A stretch of 64,000 nucleotides of DNA from Dehalococcoidia bacterium (GCA_965216155.1 CBDCFD010000005.1:149569-213568); one strand, 5' to 3'. Positions 23,178 to 54,424 are shown, counted from the stretch's first letter. Made by a program: numbers and translations. Notes: generated from the letters alone by a model not told the origin.

Positions 23178-24406
23178 TTAACTCCGGCGACCCAGCAGCC
23201 GTGACAACTCCGGCATCGCCGGATGATTTGCAGACACGGCCGACGGCATGTTTTCATACCATTCCAAAAGTTCTGACTGGGGAAACTGCTGCGGCCATTC
23301 CAAATTGACCCGGATATGATTGCCATCAAACACCACCGCGCGCAAGTTAAACAGTCCAATCAAGTCTCGTAACTGCGCCCGGTCCGGGTATTTCAGGCTT
23401 TGGTAGTGTGCCAAGGTACGCGCGAGGAAGTCACTCGGGTCTACGGAAGGGCTGTCCAGCAGAGTCTCCAGAATTTGCAACTGCCGTTCCGCCAGGACTC
23501 GCCGCCTTGGGCTACGGAGTTGCCCGAACAAAGACCGCGCGCATTCCCGGAACAGGACCCGTTTATGGTTGACCAGAATTTCCCCTGCAACAGCGTTGCA
23601 TCGCTCGGTCACCGCCGACAGCGCAAACCGGAGGAAAGGCGTGAGGTCGTGTCCACACTGGCGGGACTCGAACAGGGCGCCCAGGTACTCCTCTTTGTGG
23701 TTGTAGTAGTAATTGGACAGGCTGACCATGACCCGGTCGTTGACGCTGGCCTTCCTTAGCATAAAGGCTTCCACGGCCCGGCGGTACGGCCATTGCCGTG
23801 GCCAAAGGGGTGCATTGCACCGATATGGTAATGGATGGCCATGGCCTGAATAATACCGTCGTGCTCCCGGAACTCCCCTCCGATGGCGTTGCAGAGGGCA
23901 TCAAAAGCATCCCGGCAACCGTCTCCACCCTCCGCGCCCCGGCAACGTGGCGACCCGAAGGTGACATTGTGACCGTGCCCCCGGAGCGCTCCGGGCCCGC
24001 AGTGGTCGTCTTCACAACCGGTAACGATGCGCCGGTGGACTTCCAGCACGAACTTACGATTGACGGGACGGTCCGAAGGCTGGGAACCTATCCATTTGTA
24101 GGTCGCTTCGGCAGCCCGTAACTGCCGCTGTGAGTAGGTCAAATCGGTACGGTTCTCAGCGTCGGGAGCCAAGGCTTCGTTCTCTTCTTGAGGGGTGAAC
24201 TCGGCCCCTTCAATGCGGGAAGTGCCGGCGGTCTCCAGCCGCAGTTGCTCTTGGTGCACCGTTTCAATCCACTGGGGCAGATAGGGAAGTTGGCGCAGCA
24301 CTCCCGCCGCGGTTTTAGCTTCTACCAACTGTTCCAGGATGGCAGCTTTATCGTAGTGGATCCACCGTTGGGGGGGCGCATAACGGCTGATGTTTGCCGT
24401 GGTCAT
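23178..24406 (-). pseudogene. Fic family protein, split by a 1-nt frameshift inside the Fic motif
   Basis: ORF 23756..24406 ends HPFGHGNGRTAGPWKPLC*. Shifting one base at about 23775 restores GNGRTARAVEAFML, which continues as ORF 23178..23774. Confidence 0.7.
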
Positions 24407-24538: not shown

Positions 24539-25342
24539 TTACCGGCCCTGGAACCAGGGGCGGCGCTTTTCTGCGAAGGCGCGGATACCGTCTTGAAAGT
24601 CTCCGGTTAGACCGATTCCCTGCATGGCGGTGGTTTCGGCGTCCAGTTGTTCTTCCAGGCTGGACTCCCACGCGCGGTCGAAGAGGGCCTTGACCCGTCC
24701 GTAGGCCACAGTGGGACCCTGGGCCAACCTCATGGCGGTCTCCAGTACGTGTCTGTCCAGGTCACCGGAAGGGCAGACCTGGCTGACCAGCCCGATTTCC
24801 AGAGCCCCGTCGGCGCTGAGGGGCTGGCTGGCCAAATAAAGCTCCATTGCCTTTCCGGCGCCGATCAACCGGGGCAACATGTAGGTAGAGCCGCCGTCGG
24901 CAGTTGCCCCGATGTTGGCGTAGGCCATCAGGAACCGCGCGGTGCTGGATGCGATGCGCAGGTCGCAGGCCAGCATCAGGCTGAACCCTCCCCCCGCCGC
25001 CACTCCGTCGATGCCGGCGATTACCGGCTTTTGCAGTCGGCGAATCTCCAGTACGACGTCACGGTGCAGCGCCCCGGCCAGGTTGTTGAGGTGTTGGGAG
25101 ATTTCTTCCGGGCCCCCATTTTCCAAGTGGTCCACGAAGTCCTTAACGTCTGCGCCGGAGCAGAAAGATCCCCCGGCCCCGCTGAGGACGACCGCGCGGA
25201 TATTCGGCCCGCGGCAGGACCGTAGGGCCTCGCCCAACTGGTCTACCATTTCGGGAGACAGGGCGTTGCGCGCCTCGGGACGGTTGAGCGTAACCTTGGC
25301 TACGCTGCCCTGGATGGTGAACTCTATTCGGTTGGACGCCAT
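24539..25342 (-). CDS. enoyl-CoA hydratase/isomerase (crotonase) family protein
   Basis: VTLNRPEARNAL and GAGGSFCSGADV motifs. Confidence 0.9.
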   Translation of the reverse strand: MASNRIEFTIQGSVAKVTLNRPEARNALSPEMVDQLGEALRSCRGPNIRAVVLSGAGGSFCSGADVKDFVDHLENGGPEEISQHLNNLAGALHRDVVLEIRRLQKPVIAGIDGVAAGGGFSLMLACDLRIASSTARFLMAYANIGATADGGSTYMLPRLIGAGKAMELYLASQPLSADGALEIGLVSQVCPSGDLDRHVLETAMRLAQGPTVAYGRVKALFDRAWESSLEEQLDAETTAMQGIGLTGDFQDGIRAFAEKRRPWFQGR

Positions 25343-25395
25343 TCTGCACCTCGATTGTTGGGGGATTGTTCGGCGGTTTGACTGTCCTGGCCGGC

Positions 25396-25752
25396 CTACT
25401 CCAGCAATGGCTCCAGCTTTTCCAGCAATTGTCGCACGTCGCGCAGCCCCGCCTCAATCATATTCGCGCTTTGCAGGTCTTCATAGAAGTTGACGTGCAA
25501 GCTGTTGGCGGTGTGGTAGAGGCTGAACAATTGGGAGTCCCCGGTTTCCGCCACCAGCGAGTCAATGACCCCGCTCAAGGATGGGTGTCTATTGTGCCGC
25601 CAACCCCTTTGTTCTGCGATTGCCTTAATCATCTGCGCCGCCGCCCCCCAACCCTTTTCCGAGGCTTGCCGCAGGTCACCATCGGCCAATTCCTCGAAGG
25701 CTTTGACGATGAGCTGTTTGCTTGCTTGGGCGTATACGATGTCCCTGTTCAT
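25396..25752 (-). CDS. PaREP1/HEPN-like helical protein, copy 1
   Basis: 118 aa. ASEKGWGAAAQMIKAIAEQRGWRHNRH...ANSLHVNFYE contains an Rx4-6H-type motif (RGWxHNxH). Paralogous to 27618..28007. Confidence 0.65.
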   Translation of the reverse strand: MNRDIVYAQASKQLIVKAFEELADGDLRQASEKGWGAAAQMIKAIAEQRGWRHNRHPSLSGVIDSLVAETGDSQLFSLYHTANSLHVNFYEDLQSANMIEAGLRDVRQLLEKLEPLLE

Positions 25753-25808
25753 ATTTTATCCTTACCGCTCCGAAGGTACGCGGCTGGGGACATTAAGCCC
25801 CAGTCGTC

Positions 25809-26024
25809 CTATTCCAGCAACGGCTCCAGCTTTTCCAGCAGCAGTTGGACGTCCTGGAAACCCGCTTCGACGACTTCGGGAGGGTCCCAATTCTCATAGA
25901 AATTGCTATGGAGGCTGTTGGCCACATGAAATAGGGTGATTAACTGAGTGCAGCCCTTCGGGCGGTTCAAGGTGACCTTGGCCACGCTGCCCTGGTTAGT
26001 GAACTCGATTCTATCTGATGGCAT
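25809..26024 (-). pseudogene. chimeric remnant: crotonase codons 1-22 fused to the C-terminal ~45 aa of a PaREP1/HEPN-like gene
   Basis: MPSDRIEFTNQGSVAKVTLNRP matches MASNRIEFTIQGSVAKVTLNRP of 24539..25342 at 19/22 residues. It is followed by GCTQLITLFHVANSLHSNFYENW...LEKLEPLLE. Confidence 0.6.
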
Positions 26025-26049
26025 CCTGCACCTCGTCGGTCTGCCGGGG

Positions 26050-27612
26050 CTACTCGCCGATCTCTTCCAGGTGGAAATCGGACACGGCCACCTCCGGGGC
26101 CCAGGTTACCTGGTCGGAAGACCAGCGGACTGTGCCCCGTTGATGGCCTGTAATGCCCAGGATGTTGTTGATGACCCGGAGCACGTTGTCATTCATTCGC
26201 AGGGTGTTGGCCCTGATGGGCGCGGCCAGTCTACCGTCTTTGATTAGGTATGAGTCTCCGACGACGGTGCCGCTGAAGTCGCCCGCCGTGATCCCGTTGA
26301 CGGGGTAGGTGTACCAGATCCGTCCTATGTAAACGCCGTCTCCCACCCGGCGGAGGAGTTCATCCGTGGAGAGGTCTTCCTGTCCCTGGACCACCAGGTT
26401 GGTGGGTACGACCGAAGGGGTAGAGGCGAAATCGCGGCCTCCGCCGTTGCCGGGCCGAAACCCGTTTCTTGGGGCGATGGCTCCCGAGATTGTGCGGGGG
26501 TCAACCCCCAGCTTTCGCCGTGCTTCAGAGTCGTTCAGGATTCGCTGATAATTGTAGTGGTCCGACATTAGGCCCGAAAGGACCCCGTTGGTTATCAGGT
26601 TGGTCCGGCCCGTTGGCAGTCCCTCGTCGGTGATTCTCTTCGAGCCCGCCAGATTCGCCGCCGCGCCGTCGTCGGAGATGGACAGTTGCGTCGAGGCTAC
26701 CTGCTGGTCGAGTTTGCCCATGAAGGGCGAAGCGCCAGCCCAAAACATGTCGAGGGAAAAACCTGGCAGCAAGATCCATTCCAGAATTTCCGCGAGCGGC
26801 TGCGGGCCGAGGACTACGCGGTAATCACCGGTGGGTATACGCACGCCGTCGATGGAGGCAATTGCGTTCCGGGCCGCCTCCGCCGCCGATTCCCCGCTAA
26901 ACTCCGCGAGGCCCCGGCTGACCGACCAGCCGCTGCCCTTGGCGGCTTGCGACTCGACCATCGCCGTTGCGAAGGACATCACCAGCGTCGATTCGTCGGT
27001 CTGTACTCTCGGCATGTGGGTGGACGCGACGGCCATCCTCTCTTGCAGGTAGACGAGGTCGCCGCCGAGGATTAGGCCAAGCTCGGCTATGCGCTCGGGG
27101 GACTCGGCCAGGCTGAGCACATTTTCCGATGCCTCGAAGGTCTCAAGGCCGCGCTCTAGCATGTTCCAGCCCGTTTCAACCAGCCGGGAGTTGCCAAGCC
27201 GCATTACGGCAGGGTCGTGGAACCGGACGTCTGGGCCGGTGGTTACGCGGGTCGAAGGCGGGCTGTCTTCCGGCCGGGGCAGTGAAACGAAGTCCAGGTC
27301 ACGGACGGCTCCGGACCGGGCTTTCGCCAGCGCGGCCTGGACTCCGGTCAAGGTCAAATCCACCGGTTCGTTGCCGAAACCCACCTTGGTCCCTTCGGGG
27401 GTCCTGAATGCAACCCGCAGGCCGATTCCATAGGACTCTACCGACTTTGGCTCTTCCACGCCGTTACTGGGGATGTTGGAAGTGTAGTTGAGGCGGACCG
27501 TAAGGTTTGTGTTGGACGAGGCGAACACCTCTACCTCCGCCACGTCCGGTTGGGCGGAGACGTAGGCCAGGGCCTCGCGGGTGGCGGTGCGTAGTTTGTT
27601 CAGGGGTATCAT
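26050..27612 (-). CDS. pmbA: TldE/PmbA family metalloprotease subunit
   Basis: 520 aa with PmbA/TldD-fold signatures (ESYGIGLRV, GRIWYTY) and no HExxxH. Confidence 0.85.
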   Translation of the reverse strand: MIPLNKLRTATREALAYVSAQPDVAEVEVFASSNTNLTVRLNYTSNIPSNGVEEPKSVESYGIGLRVAFRTPEGTKVGFGNEPVDLTLTGVQAALAKARSGAVRDLDFVSLPRPEDSPPSTRVTTGPDVRFHDPAVMRLGNSRLVETGWNMLERGLETFEASENVLSLAESPERIAELGLILGGDLVYLQERMAVASTHMPRVQTDESTLVMSFATAMVESQAAKGSGWSVSRGLAEFSGESAAEAARNAIASIDGVRIPTGDYRVVLGPQPLAEILEWILLPGFSLDMFWAGASPFMGKLDQQVASTQLSISDDGAAANLAGSKRITDEGLPTGRTNLITNGVLSGLMSDHYNYQRILNDSEARRKLGVDPRTISGAIAPRNGFRPGNGGGRDFASTPSVVPTNLVVQGQEDLSTDELLRRVGDGVYIGRIWYTYPVNGITAGDFSGTVVGDSYLIKDGRLAAPIRANTLRMNDNVLRVINNILGITGHQRGTVRWSSDQVTWAPEVAVSDFHLEEIGE

Positions 27613-27617
27613 GTCGG

Positions 27618-28007
27618 CTACGTCTCTGGTGTGACTGGACCCGGGGCATACTGCCCCAACATTGGTTCCAGCTTGTCCAGAAATAGACCAACGTCGTGCA
27701 GGGCTAGCTCTACCAACTCCGGGGGCAACCAGTTCTCGTAGAAGTTTGTATGCAGGTTTCCAGCGACTTGGAATAGATTGGCTACCTGGGTATCGCCGGT
27801 CTCTTGGACCAGCGTCCTCACGATTCCGTAAAATAGACGGTGACTATTGTGTGACCAGCCCCTGCGTTCTGCCACGGCCTTGAGCATTTGCGCGGCCGCT
27901 CCCCAACCCTTCTCCGAGGCTTGCACCACGTCTCCCTGTGCCAGTTCCTGAAACGCTTTGGTCAAGAACTCTCTGCTGGCAATGGCGTATCCATCGCGTT
28001 GATTCAT
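27618..28007 (-). CDS. PaREP1/HEPN-like helical protein, copy 2
   Basis: 129 aa. ASEKGWGAAAQMLKAVAERRGWSHNSH...AGNLHTNFYENW. A GGGAGGAG RBS sits 12 nt after the tldD stop. Its own stop is 5 nt before the pmbA ATG. Confidence 0.65.
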   Translation of the reverse strand: MNQRDGYAIASREFLTKAFQELAQGDVVQASEKGWGAAAQMLKAVAERRGWSHNSHRLFYGIVRTLVQETGDTQVANLFQVAGNLHTNFYENWLPPELVELALHDVGLFLDKLEPMLGQYAPGPVTPET

Positions 28008-28019
28008 TACTCCTCCCTT

Positions 28020-29588
28020 TTAGCCTGACCCCGTTAGGCGGGCGATCCCTCTCATGGTCGGCCCCCCGTTGCTCATACGCTTGGCCTGCATGGGCTGGCC
28101 CTTGCCGCAGTTGGGGATGGGGTTGACCCGCAGATCATTGCCCACCGCGTCGATGGAAGTGAAGTATTTGCGGGAGTCGGACGTAATCCCACCGTCGCGG
28201 TAGAGCCGCCCCAACTGGCCGTTCTCGACCTCGTAGATCCTGACCGCAGTGATGCGGAAATTTTCACGGGCCTCGGAGATGGATGGGGTGCGGTGACCCG
28301 CGATGTAGTAACCTGAGTCCACATCGGCGATTATGTCCGCCGGATCGCTCTCGCCAGGCGCGAAGATGGTGTTGGTCATGCGGACCAGCGGGACCAGGTG
28401 GGCATCGGTAGCGCGGGCGGAGCCGTTGGGGGCCACTCCCATGATGGATGCGGTCTGGCGGTTGTTCAGGAACTCTTCCAGTACCCCATTGCGGATTATG
28501 TATGCTCGATGGGGAGGCGTTCCCTCGTGGTCGTACCGGAACGAACCATAGCCTTCCATCAAAGGGTCGGAAAAGGCGCTGACCAGGGGCGAGGCGATCT
28601 GCCGGCCGACCTGATTGTCCTCAAGGGTGTTGAGGAACCAGGAGCGGCCGGCGTAGGCGGTCTCGTACTTCAGCGCGCGGTCCAACTCGGAGGGGTGGCC
28701 CACCACCTCATGCACCAGCAGGGTGTTGAAGTGAGGGTCGGTGACCACCACCACATCTTTGTCCGGTGGTCTTAATGGGGGCGCGGCCGCTACTTCAACG
28801 GCGTTTGCTCCCAATTCAGTGCAGAAGTCGACGAAGTTGGGCAGTATGATGGGACCGTTGTTGTAGCCCTCGGTCAGGATCTCCCAACCGCGCTGATGGC
28901 CGGTGAAATCGTACAGTTCGTACCCGCCCGCGTCTCCATCGCAGATGACGATTACGAACCCCTCGGTCTGGGCAAAGGACTGGTCGATGTCCGCCCCATC
29001 CGAGCTTAAATATAGCTCGCGGAGCAGGTATGTCACGGCGGAAGCGGCGGAATAGCCGATGCTGCCGCCCTGGCTGTGGGCCGCTTTGCAACCGTCCACG
29101 GCCATAGCGACCACGTCCTGAAGGGGGACTTCCCTGGGGTCGACTGTGAAGACGGGCGGCACGGTGTCCTGAGCGAGAGCCACAGGGGCTAACTCGGAAG
29201 ACGAAAGACTATCTCCAAGCCTTGCAAACCTGCCCCGTGCCAAATTTTTTAGCCTGGCGCTGGTCCTTGCCCGCTGATGGGCCTGCCGGATACCCTCCCA
29301 CACCACATCCTCGATGGTGGCGGCGTCCGTCGCGCCGAGGATACGGCCGTAGTATCCCGACGCGCTGGCCCTGGTCCCTGCGATTACCCGGACCCCGAAG
29401 TCGAACGAATAGTCTTCGGAGCTAGCCTTCTCGTTGCCGTTTTCCGCCACCGCGCCCTTCTCTTCCTTTACCTGAATGCGAAGGTCGCAGTACTTCAGCC
29501 CCGGCAGCCGCCTGGCCTGCTCAGTTACCAGCACGCCCAGGTTGGTCCGCATACGGTCGAGGATGCTTACAGTGATGGGTGATGGCAT
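28020..29588 (-). CDS. tldD: TldD family metalloprotease
   Basis: 522 aa with HEVVGHPSELDR (HExxxH) and the conserved C-terminal GKGQPMQ region. Confidence 0.9.
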   Translation of the reverse strand: MPSPITVSILDRMRTNLGVLVTEQARRLPGLKYCDLRIQVKEEKGAVAENGNEKASSEDYSFDFGVRVIAGTRASASGYYGRILGATDAATIEDVVWEGIRQAHQRARTSARLKNLARGRFARLGDSLSSSELAPVALAQDTVPPVFTVDPREVPLQDVVAMAVDGCKAAHSQGGSIGYSAASAVTYLLRELYLSSDGADIDQSFAQTEGFVIVICDGDAGGYELYDFTGHQRGWEILTEGYNNGPIILPNFVDFCTELGANAVEVAAAPPLRPPDKDVVVVTDPHFNTLLVHEVVGHPSELDRALKYETAYAGRSWFLNTLEDNQVGRQIASPLVSAFSDPLMEGYGSFRYDHEGTPPHRAYIIRNGVLEEFLNNRQTASIMGVAPNGSARATDAHLVPLVRMTNTIFAPGESDPADIIADVDSGYYIAGHRTPSISEARENFRITAVRIYEVENGQLGRLYRDGGITSDSRKYFTSIDAVGNDLRVNPIPNCGKGQPMQAKRMSNGGPTMRGIARLTGSG

Positions 29589-29695
29589 GGCAGTCCACTT
29601 ATCCTGCTATCAAATTCTCAACTTTATTGGTCCATTTCCTGGCAGGGACAGATTTTAACGCCGCCCCTGCGGTATGTCCGGAGTGCGGTTTACGT

Positions 29696-30013
29696 CTATA
29701 TCGACAAGTCCAAGGCAAACCGCAGCGCCTCCTCAATCGCTTTCATCTTCTCCTGGCTCAACCGGGTGATTCTCTGCTCGATATGGCGCTTATCTATAGT
29801 GAGTACCGCGTCAAGGTTGGCCGCACATGGCGCCGGCAGGCCGTCCTCCGGTCCTAACAGCACTTCGACAAGCAACCCGCGGACTCGAGTAGTACAGGCG
29901 ATGACGGTGACGTTTGTGAGGAACACATAGGCCGCCTCTCTGGTTAACAGGACTACGGGCCGAAGTCCCCAGGGGTCGGGAAGGTCGGCCCACCATACTT
30001 CGCCGCGCCTCAC
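29696..30013 (-). CDS. mazF: type II toxin, MazF/PemK family endoribonuclease
   Basis: MRRGEVWWADLPDP...RPVVLL...VIACTT pattern. Confidence 0.85.
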   Translation of the reverse strand: MRRGEVWWADLPDPWGLRPVVLLTREAAYVFLTNVTVIACTTRVRGLLVEVLLGPEDGLPAPCAANLDAVLTIDKRHIEQRITRLSQEKMKAIEEALRFALDLSI

Positions 30014-30255
30014 TCGTCAGTCTCCGCATCCCAGGGTGGCACGTCCACAGCCATTGACATCGCCGCCTGGAGCCAGCCTTCCAGGTCGTCCTCCTCTCCC
30101 GGACGGTCGAAGAATGCCCACGCTTTTTCTTGAAAACGGATGTAATATTCCACGGCCTGCCGGACAAAATCGTCGAGAGTCATCCCACGGCGCAGGTGGG
30201 ACTTCTCCAACTTCGACAGGACATCCTCCGGCAGCGTTATGGTCACTGTTCCCAT
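30010..30255 (-). CDS. ribbon-helix-helix antitoxin (MazE-like)
   Basis: 81 aa. VTITLPEDVLSKLEK RHH start and an acidic tail. Overlaps mazF by 4 nt. Confidence 0.7.
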   Translation of the reverse strand: MGTVTITLPEDVLSKLEKSHLRRGMTLDDFVRQAVEYYIRFQEKAWAFFDRPGEEDDLEGWLQAAMSMAVDVPPWDAETDE

Positions 30256-51072: not shown

Positions 51073-52458
51073 CTAAAACTCAGCGTTCTTGGGGGTCCGG
51101 GGGAAGGGGATCACGTCCCTGATGTTCGGCATTCCGGTTGCGAATTGGACCGTGCGCTCAAAACCCAGACCAAAGCCGGCGTGAGGCACAGTGCCATAGT
51201 TGCGCAAGTCCAGGTACCACCAATAGTTTTCCGCGTCAAGGCCGCTTTCCTTCATTCTCTCGAGGAGCACGTCCCGCCGTTCTTCACGCTGGCTGCCTCC
51301 AATGATCTCGCCGATCCTGGGCACCAAAACGTCCATGGCCCGAACGGTCTGACCGTCGTCACTGAGCCGCATGTAGAAAGCCTTGATCTCCTTGGGGTAG
51401 TCGGTGACGATTACCGGCTTCCCCACGTGTTTTTCCGTCAAGAACCTCTCATGTTCCGATTGCAGGTCCGCCCCCCAATGGACCGGGAATTCAAAACTCT
51501 CGCCCGAGCGTTGCAGTATTTCTACGGCCTCGGTGTAAGTCAACCGCTCGAAGTTGGAGTCGACGATCCCTTCCAATGTCGAGATGACGGTCTTGTCGTA
51601 CCACTGGTTGAAGAAGGCCAGGTCCTCCGGGCAGTGCTCCAATACGTAGCGAAGTATGTACTTGAGAAAGTCCTCAGATAACTCCGCCAAGCCGTCCAAC
51701 TCACAGAAGGCGACCTCCGGCTCGACCATCCAAAATTCCGCGAGGTGCCGGGAGGTGTTGGAGTTCTCAGCCCTGAAAGTAGGGCCGAAAGTGTACACGT
51801 CGGACAGCGCGAGGGCGAAGATTTCGGCTTCAAGCTGACCGCTGACGGTTAGGAACGTGGGTTTCCCGAAGAAGTCTTCCCCCGAGTCCACCTCTCCGTC
51901 CTTCATCGGAAGTTTGTTCAGGTCAAGGGTGGTAACCCTGAACATGGCTCCCGCGCCCTCGGCATCGCTGGCGGTAATCATGGGTGACTGTAGATAGAGG
52001 AACCCGCGCTCTTGGAAGAAGCGATGTATCGCGAAGGCGAGAGCGTTCCTCACGCGGGCCATGGCTCCAAAGGTGTTGGTGCGTGGCCGGAGATGGGCAA
52101 TCTCCCGCAAGAATTCTACGGTGTGCCGTTTTTTCTGCAAGGGATAGGTGTCGGGGTCCGCCAGTCCCAGGACTTCCAGCGATTTAGCCTGTACCTCGAA
52201 CCGTTGACCCTTGCCGGGAGACTCGACCAGGGCGCCGGACACGGAGACGCTGCAGCCGGTGGTCAAGGATTCCACGACTGAGAAGTTGGGAATCGACTCG
52301 TCGGTAACGACCTGGAGGTCTTGGAGTGTCGAGCCGTCGTTGATCTGCAAGAAGGAAACGTTTCTGGACGAGCGGCGGGTCTTGACCCATCCCTGTACCA
52401 AAATGTCCCCACCAGCGGACTCGCGCTGAAGGATATCGCTTATCTTGGTGCGCAGCAT
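51073..52458 (-). CDS. asnS: asparagine--tRNA ligase
   Basis: 461 aa with [19 protein letters not shown] and class II motifs. Confidence 0.9.
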
Positions 52459-52553: not shown

Positions 52554-52925
52554 TCAGATGCTAACGTCCGCCATCATCAGCGCGTCCGTAGGGACTAATC
52601 GCTGACCCACAGGGTCCACTGCCAACAAGGCTCGTTCCAGCGTGTAGACTCCGAGCAATGCCGTGGTGTCGTCCTCGCCAAACACTACGATCGTGGAAAA
52701 CTCTCTTCCTTCGATTCGGACCTGAGTTTCGCCAATTGACCGTTGGATCGTATTATCGTCCGCTAGCCGGAATCTAACCGTCTCTGTAGCCGTAACGCCG
52801 AGCCGGTCGAGCATTGTCGATGGTACGACGGTGAACGTAGCCCCGGTATCCACGAGCGCATCCACTTGCTCGAACTCGTTGGTGTCCGGTCCTCCCACTC
52901 CCAGGGAATATCTAAAGATGCTCAT
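52554..52925 (-). CDS. retropepsin-like (clan AA) aspartic protease
   Basis: ALVDTGATFTVVP catalytic DTGA, 123 aa. Confidence 0.65.
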   Translation of the reverse strand: MSIFRYSLGVGGPDTNEFEQVDALVDTGATFTVVPSTMLDRLGVTATETVRFRLADDNTIQRSIGETQVRIEGREFSTIVVFGEDDTTALLGVYTLERALLAVDPVGQRLVPTDALMMADVSI

Positions 52926-52933
52926 GTTTTTCT

Positions 52934-54424
52934 CTACTCCATTAACGGCCTGGCCTCATGCCAGGTGGTCGCCTGCTCATAGGCGTAGGCGATGCGCAGC
53001 AGGCGTTGTTCCGACAGATGCGGGCCGATTAGCTGCATCCCAACCGGAAGGCCCTGGGAGAAACCGCAAGGGACGGATATGGCCGGGAGGCCCGCTATAT
53101 TGACGGGCAAGGTACATACGTCGATCAGGTACATCTCCACCGGGTTGTCAGTCTTGGATCCCAGGGGAAACGCCACCACGGGCGACGTGGGAGTGACCAG
53201 CGCGTCCACCTGCTGGAAGACCCGCTCGAATTCTTGCCGGATAAGCGTCCTCACCTGCTGGGCTTTCAAGTAATAGGCGTCGTAATAGCCCGCCGACAGT
53301 GCGTACGCTCCCAGCATAATCCGGCGTTTAACCTCCAGGCCAAACCCGATTCGGCGGGTCTGTTCCATCGCCTCCCACATGTCTTCCGTGTCTTGGAAGG
53401 AATACCCGTATTTCACGCCGTCGTACCGCGCCAGGTTGGCGGAACACTCCGACGGCGCGATGATGTAATAACAGGCAAGGGCGTACCGTGTGGTGGGAAG
53501 GGAAACGGGCTCGACCACCGCGCCCAGGGATTCCAAAGTCTCGATCGCCGCCTGAATTGATTCCCTGACGCCTGCCTCCATACCCTCCACGAAGTATTCT
53601 TCGGGCACTCCCAGGCGTAGCGCACCTTGGGTGCCTCTGGAAGCAAATGGTGTCGAAGAGTCGCCGCCTAGGCCCGCCGCCATGTCTGGAATTGGCACGT
53701 TCAGGCAGGTGGAATCCCTTGGGTCCGGGCCGGCAATTGCATTCAGGACTAGGGCGCAATCGGTGACGTCATGGGTGATGGGGCCGATTTGGTCCAGGGA
53801 CGATGCGTAGGCGATTAAACCGTATCGGCTAACCAACCCGTAGGTCGGCTTGAGGCCCACCGTACCGCACATGGCTGAGGGTTGGCGGATGCTGCCTCCG
53901 GTGTCGGACCCTAAGGCGTACACTGCCTCCCCTGATGCGACCGCCGCTGCCCCGCCGCCGCTGCTGCCTCCGGGGACCCGCTCAGTGTTCCAAGGGTTGC
54001 GGGTTGGGAAAAAGGCCGAATTCTCGCACGAAGACCCCATGCCGAACTCGTCCATGTTCCCTTTGCCAAGCAGTACCGCGCCCTGCCCGAACAACCTGGC
54101 GGCAACCGTGGCATCGTACACCGGGACGTAGTCCTCCAGCATTCGGGAGGAGCAGGACGTAGTGACGCCCTTCGTGCAGATAAGGTCCTTTATCTGCATG
54201 GGTATGCCGGTGAGGGGACCGGCGCCGCCCGCAGCTATGCGCCGGTCGGCTTCTCCGGCTTGCTGGCGGGCCAGTTCGGGGGTGACGGTGACGAAAGCCT
54301 TGAGCCGGTCATCCTGCCTTTGTATTTGCTCCAGGCAAGCCTCGGTCAGTTCCACCGAGCTTAGCTCCCGCCGGGACAAGCTTGCGGCGGCTTCTTGGAT
54401 AGTCAGGGGCAGTCCAGCGAGCAC
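52934..54424 (-). CDS. gatA: Glu-tRNA(Gln)/Asp-tRNA(Asn) amidotransferase subunit A
   Basis: Amidase signature GGSSGGGAAAVA, 496 aa. Confidence 0.95.
   Translation of the reverse strand: MLAGLPLTIQEAAASLSRRELSSVELTEACLEQIQRQDDRLKAFVTVTPELARQQAGEADRRIAAGGAGPLTGIPMQIKDLICTKGVTTSCSSRMLEDYVPVYDATVAARLFGQGAVLLGKGNMDEFGMGSSCENSAFFPTRNPWNTERVPGGSSGGGAAAVASGEAVYALGSDTGGSIRQPSAMCGTVGLKPTYGLVSRYGLIAYASSLDQIGPITHDVTDCALVLNAIAGPDPRDSTCLNVPIPDMAAGLGGDSSTPFASRGTQGALRLGVPEEYFVEGMEAGVRESIQAAIETLESLGAVVEPVSLPTTRYALACYYIIAPSECSANLARYDGVKYGYSFQDTEDMWEAMEQTRRIGFGLEVKRRIMLGAYALSAGYYDAYYLKAQQVRTLIRQEFERVFQQVDALVTPTSPVVAFPLGSKTDNPVEMYLIDVCTLPVNIAGLPAISVPCGFSQGLPVGMQLIGPHLSEQRLLRIAYAYEQATTWHEARPLME

Follow-up and report, generated by a model that had tools for sequence, protein, structure and literature searches.

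PaREP1-family HEPN-fold genes of a Dehalococcoidia bacterium as probable passengers in a hypervariable slot between tldD and pmbA

We analyzed a 64,000-nucleotide (nt) stretch of DNA from a Dehalococcoidia bacterium (hereafter, the window), in which two small genes of one family, here called X, are embedded in a gene string encoding the two subunits of a TldD/PmbA metalloprotease and a crotonase. X1 lies between tldD and pmbA, and X2 between pmbA and the crotonase gene. We conclude that X1 and X2 are probably selected, functional passengers of the PaREP1 (HEPN-T) family and that X1 resides in a hypervariable slot between tldD and pmbA. The original prediction for this region had proposed that TldD/TldE might be the partner or regulator of a HEPN-type effector, or that a HEPN-like protein might be a substrate or adaptor of TldD/TldE. 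Comparative genomics provided no positive evidence for TldD/PmbA as a partner, regulator or substrate-handler of X.

Organization of the tldD-pmbA-crotonase operon

Open reading frames (ORFs) were called in the window and the bases at their junctions were read directly. Six co-directional ORFs were found on the minus strand, in the order tldD, X1, pmbA, a 71-amino-acid (aa) ORF, X2 and crotonase; their number, the gaps of 12, 5 and 25 nt and the ribosome-binding site GGGAGGAG were all as originally described. The features are as follows.

29652-29680, minus strand: candidate sigma-70-like promoter ahead of tldD (9 of 12 consensus positions matched)
28020-29588, minus strand: tldD, 522 aa, predicted catalytic subunit of a divergent TldD/PmbA metalloprotease pair (PF19289, E 2e-41)
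28008-28019, minus strand: tldD-X1 spacer AAGGGAGGAGTA, 12 nt, with the Shine-Dalgarno site GGGAGGAG for X1 (direct reading)
27618-28007, minus strand: X1, 129 aa, PaREP1-family HEPN-fold protein with a 118-aa core and a disordered 11-aa tail (PF05942, AlphaFold)
27613-27617, minus strand: X1-pmbA spacer CCGAC, 5 nt, without space for a separate ribosome-binding site (direct reading)
26050-27612, minus strand: pmbA (tldE), 520 aa, predicted non-catalytic partner subunit (PF19289, E 1.7e-37)
25809-26024, minus strand: 71-aa chimeric ORF, likely a remnant, with residues 1-23 from the crotonase start joined to 46 C-terminal residues of an X gene (alignment)
25396-25752, minus strand: X2, 118 aa, second PaREP1-family paralogue (PF05942, E 4.4e-18)
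24539-25342, minus strand: crotonase (enoyl-CoA hydratase), last gene of the tldD-pmbA-crotonase backbone (PF00378, E 1.2e-58)

The tldD stop codon (TAA) is followed by the 12-nt spacer and the ATG of X1, the X1 stop codon (TAG) by CCGAC and the ATG of pmbA, and the pmbA stop codon by 25 nt and the ATG of the chimeric ORF. The strong ribosome-binding site belongs to X1 itself, and no convincing terminator was found between the operon genes on the minus strand. Given its location inside the operon, X1 probably shares the tldD promoter, and translation of pmbA is probably coupled to that of X1 across the 5-nt gap, as judged from the junction.

Family and fold of X

X1 matched the PaREP1 model PF05942 with an E value of 3.2e-19 (69.4 bits) and X2 scored 65.7 bits, the gathering score of the model being 24.4 bits; all 120 listed X homologues carried this domain. 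The two proteins are paralogues with 54% identity, far beyond chance (tblastn E 1e-37 to 7e-41). An AlphaFold model of X1, built on 45 homologues (predicted local distance difference test score, pLDDT, 91.9), contained five helices (residues 3-23, 27-49, 56-70, 74-91 and 96-117), with residues 50-70 forming an insert. When the model was compared with known structures using Foldseek, the first match was 2q00_A (template modelling (TM) scores 0.74/0.79, root mean square deviation 2.2, 117 columns), and ranks 2-10 were all HEPN domains, including 2hsb (second, TM 0.72), 1ufb, 1wol, sacsin 3o10 and 1o3u. Further, the X profile matched 2jpu (E 6e-4), and some members of the family additionally matched the Pfam HEPN model PF05168. 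The helices of the model and the Foldseek matches place X1 within the HEPN superfamily by fold, and the resemblance to PaREP1 and HEPN proteins that had originally been proposed is thus confirmed by Pfam, by the fold and by the PF05168 matches of some members.

Among the 45 X sequences, 16 columns were invariant, and the ratio of nonsynonymous to synonymous substitution rates (dN/dS) of X1 against its two closest relatives (loci L161 and L162) was 0.10-0.19, indicating purifying selection. These values bear on the view that X1 and X2 lack function, either as decaying remnants or as mis-called ORFs. It draws on the truncated chimeric copy adjoining X2, which is itself likely a decaying remnant, and on a frameshifted Fic gene nearby, which shows that pseudogenes occur in the region. 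For X1 and X2 it is effectively refuted, and we assign it almost no weight, by the low dN/dS over a synonymous divergence (dS) of about 1 or more, the invariant columns, the confident fold and the strong ribosome-binding site.

Conserved residues and candidate site

In 107 family members, seven residues (X1 numbering) were near-invariant: R49 (104 members), H53 (107), H56 (106), H86 (103), N88 (105), Y90 (103) and E91 (105). N54 of the "HNxH" string was not conserved. The motifs originally noticed in both small proteins are therefore real and near-invariant throughout these members. One of them, RGWxHNxH, had been taken as the signature of HEPN RNases; it does fit Rx4-6H as text, but it does not lie at the homologous position. 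In the HEPN survey of Anantharaman et al. (PMC3710099), the canonical Rx4-6H is located where core helix 3 ends, and helices 2 and 3 are described as frequently separated by an insert. On the X1 model, helix 56-70 corresponds to such an insert and helix 74-91 to core helix 3, so that R49-x6-H56 is divided between the final part of helix 2 and the insert that follows it. The canonical position of X is LH86-x-N88-F-Y90-E91, in which the histidine has no basic residue 4-6 positions upstream (F-Q-V-A-G-N-L-H); H86 stands alone there in place of the canonical HEPN RNase motif. H86 aligned to the histidine of "TLHVEGFHE" in 2jpu, and the same survey, which places PaREP1/8 in the HEPN-T clade, says of PaREP1/8 that it "lacks R but H is conserved" (PMC3710099).

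By helix topology, R49, H53 and H56 would lie at the same pole of the helix bundle as H86, N88, Y90 and E91. Judging from the model, the polar site of X would combine H86 of LHxNFYE, where core helix 3 ends, with R49, H53 and H56 from the helix 2-3 insert. Such a composite site would resemble the "alternative" active site that has been suggested for HEPN-T proteins of the AF0298-like type (PMC3710099). The fold and the invariant R/H/H/H/N/Y/E residues are most consistent with a dimeric RNA-cleaving or RNA/nucleotide-binding module. X would act as a HEPN-type dimer that, under stress or conflict, most likely cleaves RNA without a metal or binds RNA or nucleotides, and would do so independently of the TldD/PmbA protease.

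Distribution and neighbors of X

The X family is large. A protein search yielded more than 1,000 clusters at 90% identity, and an exhaustive search yielded approximately 2,200 representatives at 50% identity, of which 1,157 had E <= 1e-10. More than 550 copies were detected when genomes were scanned; metagenome-assembled Dehalococcoidia/SAR202 genomes accounted for nearly all of them, and sponge-associated Acidimicrobiia for a few. Each genome carries several dispersed copies (at least 3-5), and tandem arrays contain up to four. X lies outside the archaeal distribution by which PaREP1 was described, which is an extension of range and not a matter of structure; X1 and X2 are part of a large multi-copy bacterial PaREP1 (HEPN-T) branch that expanded in Dehalococcoidia. 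Some of the 50%-identity representatives (the set P0121-P0126 and P0204, in which gene-call artefacts are possible) are proteins of about 250 aa with two X domains, which would fit a dimeric action of X. One member of this set, subject to the same possible artefact, has an N-terminal Xre-type helix-turn-helix (HTH) domain; it echoes the ribbon-helix-helix (RHH) fusions of PaREP1 reported in Pyrobaculum (PMC2701414).

We surveyed the neighbors of X at the 80 best genome loci, from which 159 flanking genes were clustered. TldD/PmbA adjoined X in 7 of the 80 loci and was absent within 6 kb in the other 73. No recurrent partner gene of X was found in these loci, 106 of the 159 flanking genes being singletons, and the orientation of X relative to its neighbors was approximately 50:50. 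The neighbors were diverse and included MetE-like enzymes, luciferase-like monooxygenases and restriction-modification methylases. No MNT gene was present beside X in the window, where the neighbors are TldD, PmbA and crotonase, and none recurred among the 159 flanking genes, so that the claim of a missing MNT partner held. An X profile scan found no relatives in IMG/VR viral contigs, and X1 had no tblastn match in PLSDB plasmids. We also considered a mobile cassette with conserved ends; when the 150-nt flanks of 105 X copies were compared using blastn-short, similarity was limited to syntenic or tandem copies and no common terminal repeat was detected.

These results also bear on whether X is a nuclease or toxin at all. 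It could instead be a non-catalytic or metal/ligand-binding helical bundle, for example with a His/Glu site of H53, H56, H86 and E91, in a benign accessory role. Such a role would accommodate at least 3-5 copies per genome without an antitoxin-like neighbor, the absence of the canonical HEPN arginine (PMC3710099), the three near-invariant histidines and a glutamate that helix topology places at one pole of the bundle, and the failure to find X in viral contigs or plasmids. However, the best structural matches are HEPN proteins and not metalloproteins, hemerythrin-type folds reaching a TM score of only about 0.5; the invariant R49 and histidines fit the alternative active site of AF0298-like HEPN-T proteins; one member carries an Xre-type HTH fusion, as in antitoxin-like regulators; and some copies adjoin restriction-modification methylases. 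We consider the accessory role unlikely, although it is the foremost of the alternatives to a functional RNA-directed passenger.

Occurrence of X between tldD and pmbA

X was found between tldD and pmbA in 11 distinct loci, namely the window, L161, L162, L001, L004, L007, L010, L011, L050, L067 and L117. The closest relatives retain the order tldD-X1-pmbA with the same 5-nt spacing between X1 and pmbA (L161, X1 91% identical; L162, 79%). The seven X-anchored loci with TldD/PmbA (L001, L004, L007, L010, L011, L050 and L067) contain TldD, one to three X genes and PmbA, usually followed by crotonase. The original prediction was to be abandoned if X between tldD and pmbA proved an accident of one lineage; the arrangement does recur, in 11 loci, but only in a subset of lineages. 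The TldD-linked X genes group together on the X tree, which suggests that X entered the slot once or twice long ago and was later inherited, lost or exchanged.

Cargo of the tldD-pmbA gap

A metagenome scan with a TldD profile yielded 80 loci, of which 68 were informative about the gap between tldD and pmbA. Its contents included the following.

RmuC: 31 of 68 loci
Empty gap (-128 to 178 nt): 9 of 68 loci
Small GIY-YIG gene, alone or with other genes: 9 of 68 loci
Redoxin: 7 of 68 loci
Adenylate cyclase, CRP and OsmC: 2 of 68 loci
X: 1 of 68 loci

One GIY-YIG locus had a DnaJ-domain protein as second occupant, one further gap held a retropepsin-like protease, and several gaps held unknown proteins. 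In the genome set, X shared the slot with a retropepsin-like protease in L004, L007, L010 and L011, and with RmuC in L050. The protease was considered as a fixed partner of X and rejected, since the two stand in either order in these four loci and are not adjacent elsewhere. The cargo comprised one to three genes, co-directional in every case examined. In a neighbor-joining tree of TldD, X-bearing, RmuC-bearing and empty loci were interleaved among close relatives, and the empty gaps contained no significant trace of X, of RmuC or of the retropepsin-like protease. The gap thus has the same conserved flanks and different cargo in related genomes, as a hotspot does. No integrase was found in the window, and no repeats were found around X1. 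We propose that X1 occupies a cargo slot between tldD and pmbA that is empty or filled with unrelated genes in sister lineages.

Several gaps showed features of their own. In the marine clade, the commonest occupant is RmuC (approximately 350 aa; L084 7591-8643 and 30 other marine metagenome loci), which matched the PADLOC model "RTasRmuC" (E 3e-24) and may be the housekeeping rmuC. In distant TldD relatives (approximately 54% identity; L137 1684-2446, L138 7489-8030 and L145 7489-7983), each inserted gene is directly followed by a copy of the final ~76 nt of tldD, and in L145 a 165-nt unit occurs three times in tandem. The inverted repeat CCTGTCATTCCGAG / CTCGGAATGACAGG brackets the small GIY-YIG gene (107-135 aa), which looks like a small mobile cassette targeting the 3' end of tldD. 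Directly after the GIY-YIG cassette, L138 (8046-10598) encodes an 850-aa protein with TIR, STAND-NTPase and TPR domains (PADLOC TIR-NLR, E 1.5e-10). Minus-strand cargo ORFs in L134, L144 and L152 were discarded as antisense artefacts of plus-strand GIY-YIG genes. In L088 (3907-4230) and L089 (7569-7892), the gap is 322 nt long and contains one short ORF with a hydrophobic N-terminus (MESLIIIILAVLALVLTGALVAA...), which may be a remnant of a deleted RmuC (weak match, E ~1).

The TldD/PmbA and crotonase backbone

In Pfam, TldD and PmbA both fall within the PmbA/TldD metallopeptidase family, and the product of the last gene is classed as an enoyl-CoA hydratase; a crotonase gene follows pmbA in most related loci. 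TldD contains HEVVGH at residue 293 and NCGKG at residue 493, and neither HExxxH nor CGxG was found in the PmbA sequence. The pair thus shows the familiar division of roles, with one catalytic and one non-catalytic subunit. Because both proteins fell far below the NCBIfam equivalog cut-offs (113 bits vs 635 for TldD; 18.6 bits vs 438), they belong to a divergent clade of the family.

Passenger or partner of the protease

Functional coupling is a competitor of the passenger interpretation. TldD/PmbA would control X, for example through proteolysis of X or of a labile inhibitor, or X would be an adaptor or substrate of the protease; in a broader version, the gap would be an effector slot of a protease-gated conflict system. 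TldD/E of E. coli degrades the antitoxin CcdA. Several observations favor coupling and weigh against a mere passenger. X1 is tightly packed and co-directional with its flanks (12 and 5 nt), with probable translational coupling. X is kept in the slot in 11 loci under purifying selection, and X1 has remained there across deep divergence, the dS separating the window from L162 being about 1 or higher. The TldD-linked X copies cluster on the X tree, implying a specialised TldD-linked subfamily; the X and TldD trees are neighbor-joining trees without support values. About half of the annotated cargo types are of nuclease, TIR, HEPN or mobile type, which can be read as the filling of an effector slot. 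The cargo besides X includes the RmuC nuclease, GIY-YIG, TIR-STAND and the retropepsin-like protease, and the metagenome sample may under-represent X-carrying lineages. With respect to activity, the multi-copy, partner-less occurrence of X argues against a constitutively toxic RNase, and, to our knowledge, no PaREP1 protein has a known biochemical activity.

On the other side, 9 of the 68 slots are empty, and the cargo also includes redoxin, OsmC, adenylate cyclase, CRP, a DnaJ-domain protein and a probably housekeeping RmuC. Over 90% of the X genes in the sample lack a neighboring protease gene, and the conserved backbone runs on into the metabolic crotonase gene. A match to known defence systems was sought with the PADLOC 2.0 models, and none was obtained for X1, X2, TldD or PmbA (E <= 0.01). 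In the literature searched, nothing linked TldD with HEPN, PaREP1 or RmuC, and two comparative-genomics papers (PMC3710099 and PMC2701414) alone were relevant. We therefore regard functional coupling as improbable, and the proposal of TldD/E as the specific partner or regulator of X was not supported, given the 73 of 80 X loci without TldD/PmbA and the single X among 68 TldD-anchored gaps. Its boldest form has a slimmer chance still: a dedicated cassette slot whose interchangeable effectors are co-expressed with, and controlled by, the TldD/PmbA chamber protease. Candidate effectors would be PaREP1-HEPN, the RmuC nuclease, TIR-STAND, the retropepsin-like protease and GIY-YIG. If true, such a protease-gated slot would represent a new logic of toxin control without a dedicated antitoxin.

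Origin of the chimeric ORF and X2

The passenger interpretation extends to the second insertion, between pmbA and crotonase. Local alignment revealed a duplication flanking the X2 insert, with two copies of approximately 88 nt and roughly 80% identity.

25949-26035, minus strand: copy 1, ribosome-binding site and 5' end of crotonase (local alignment)
25267-25353, minus strand: copy 2, start of the working crotonase gene (local alignment)

Residues 1-23 of the 71-aa ORF, with the 13 nt upstream (the ribosome-binding site), are a copy of the crotonase start, and residues 26-71 are a copy of the C-terminal part of X, which includes the bases just past the X stop codon. The ORF is thus a true chimera, as had been supposed. 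Neither the chimera nor X2 is present in L161 and L162, in which crotonase directly follows pmbA; the insertion is therefore recent in the window lineage. Over 45 nt, the spacer preceding X2 shares 87% identity with one that lies within the three-copy X array of L001. X2 and the X-derived portion of the chimera therefore look like the tail of a tandem X array, which would have recombined later into the pmbA-crotonase junction at the crotonase start, duplicating the crotonase 5' end. We rejected a simple tandem duplication as the source of the chimera, since it would have placed X before the chimera and crotonase, whereas the chimera in fact precedes X2 and crotonase. Between the window and L161, dS was 0.90 for tldD and 0.21-0.24 for X1, pmbA and crotonase; this jump indicates a recombination breakpoint at or near the tldD/X1 border.

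Other gaps with inserted genes in the window

Further small genes occupy gaps elsewhere in the window.

30010-30255, minus strand: RHH antitoxin, in the ilvD-tldD gap
29696-30013, minus strand: MazF/PemK toxin, in the ilvD-tldD gap
23178-24406, minus strand: Fic gene split by a frameshift near 23780 into ORFs of 216 and 198 aa, in the crotonase-mutS2 gap
52554-52925, minus strand: retropepsin-like aspartyl protease, 123 aa, between gatA and a class II tRNA synthetase gene

The ilvD-tldD gap is another variable slot, with the RHH and MazF/PemK genes in the window and L162 and GmrSD_N (DUF262) in L161 (1789-3134). The crotonase-mutS2 gap is variable as well, with an intact 409-aa Fic in L161 and no Fic in L162. 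The retropepsin-like gene is co-directional with its flanks, namely gatA (52934-54424), from which 8 nt separate it, and a D/K/N-type tRNA synthetase gene (51073-52458; Pfam tRNA-synt_2), and its homologues are those that share the tldD-pmbA slot with X in L004, L007, L010 and L011. It represents a second small multi-copy passenger family. Small multi-copy genes inside unrelated gene strings are a general habit of this genome.

Implications

PaREP1, described as archaeal, has a very large and highly conserved bacterial expansion in genomes of Dehalococcoidia/SAR202 type with its own near-invariant R/H/H/H/N/Y/E site, and this branch is a good target for learning the function of PaREP1. The case also calls for caution in neighborhood inference, since a tightly packed, co-directional and translationally coupled operon gene can be a passenger. 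We found no description, in the literature searched, of a hypervariable gap of one to three genes between the subunit genes of a heterodimeric protease. The slot could serve as a compact natural model of how operons tolerate and exchange inserted genes.

Comparison with known systems

X is closest to PaREP1/PaREP8 (PF05942; HEPN-T; 2q00/2jpu of Sulfolobus solfataricus), with which it shares a hidden Markov model match well over threshold and the best structural match. As in that family, the histidine at the canonical position is kept without the arginine, the genes are multi-copy and form tandem arrays, and no MNT gene is present in the operon (PMC3710099, PMC2701414). In contrast to the family, described as archaeal, X is bacterial (Dehalococcoidia and a few Acidimicrobiia), is approximately 20% identical to 2q00, has the extra near-invariant R49-G-W-x-H53-x-x-H56 in the helix 2-3 insert, and has no RHH fusion, one HTH fusion having been seen. 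AF0298-like HEPN-T proteins (PDB 2hsb) are the second-best fold match to X (TM 0.72); they keep the basic residue and lose the canonical histidine, whereas the reverse holds for X. With the HEPN-MNT (HepT/MntA) toxin-antitoxin systems, X shares the HEPN fold, the small size and an expected dimer. However, X has neither an adjacent nucleotidyltransferase gene nor any recurrent partner, and RX4HXY is absent at its canonical position.

Like TldD/TldE of E. coli, the protease of the window consists of two paralogous subunits, with the metal-binding HExxxH and cysteine in TldD only. The window pair differs in its membership in a divergent clade, with approximately 520 aa per subunit, and its genes are adjacent, with a variable gap between them and a crotonase gene after them. 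The slot itself resembles chromosomal integration hotspots and variable islets: close relatives carry different cargo between one conserved pair of genes, toxin-antitoxin, nuclease, defence and mobile genes are abundant in that cargo, and scars of recombination are visible. It differs from them in lying inside an operon, and its cargo comprises one to three genes, co-directional in the cases examined; no integrase was found in the window. The slot is an instance of a known phenomenon, variable islets between core genes; its position between genes for the two subunits of a single enzyme is unusual. X is a new bacterial branch of a known family.

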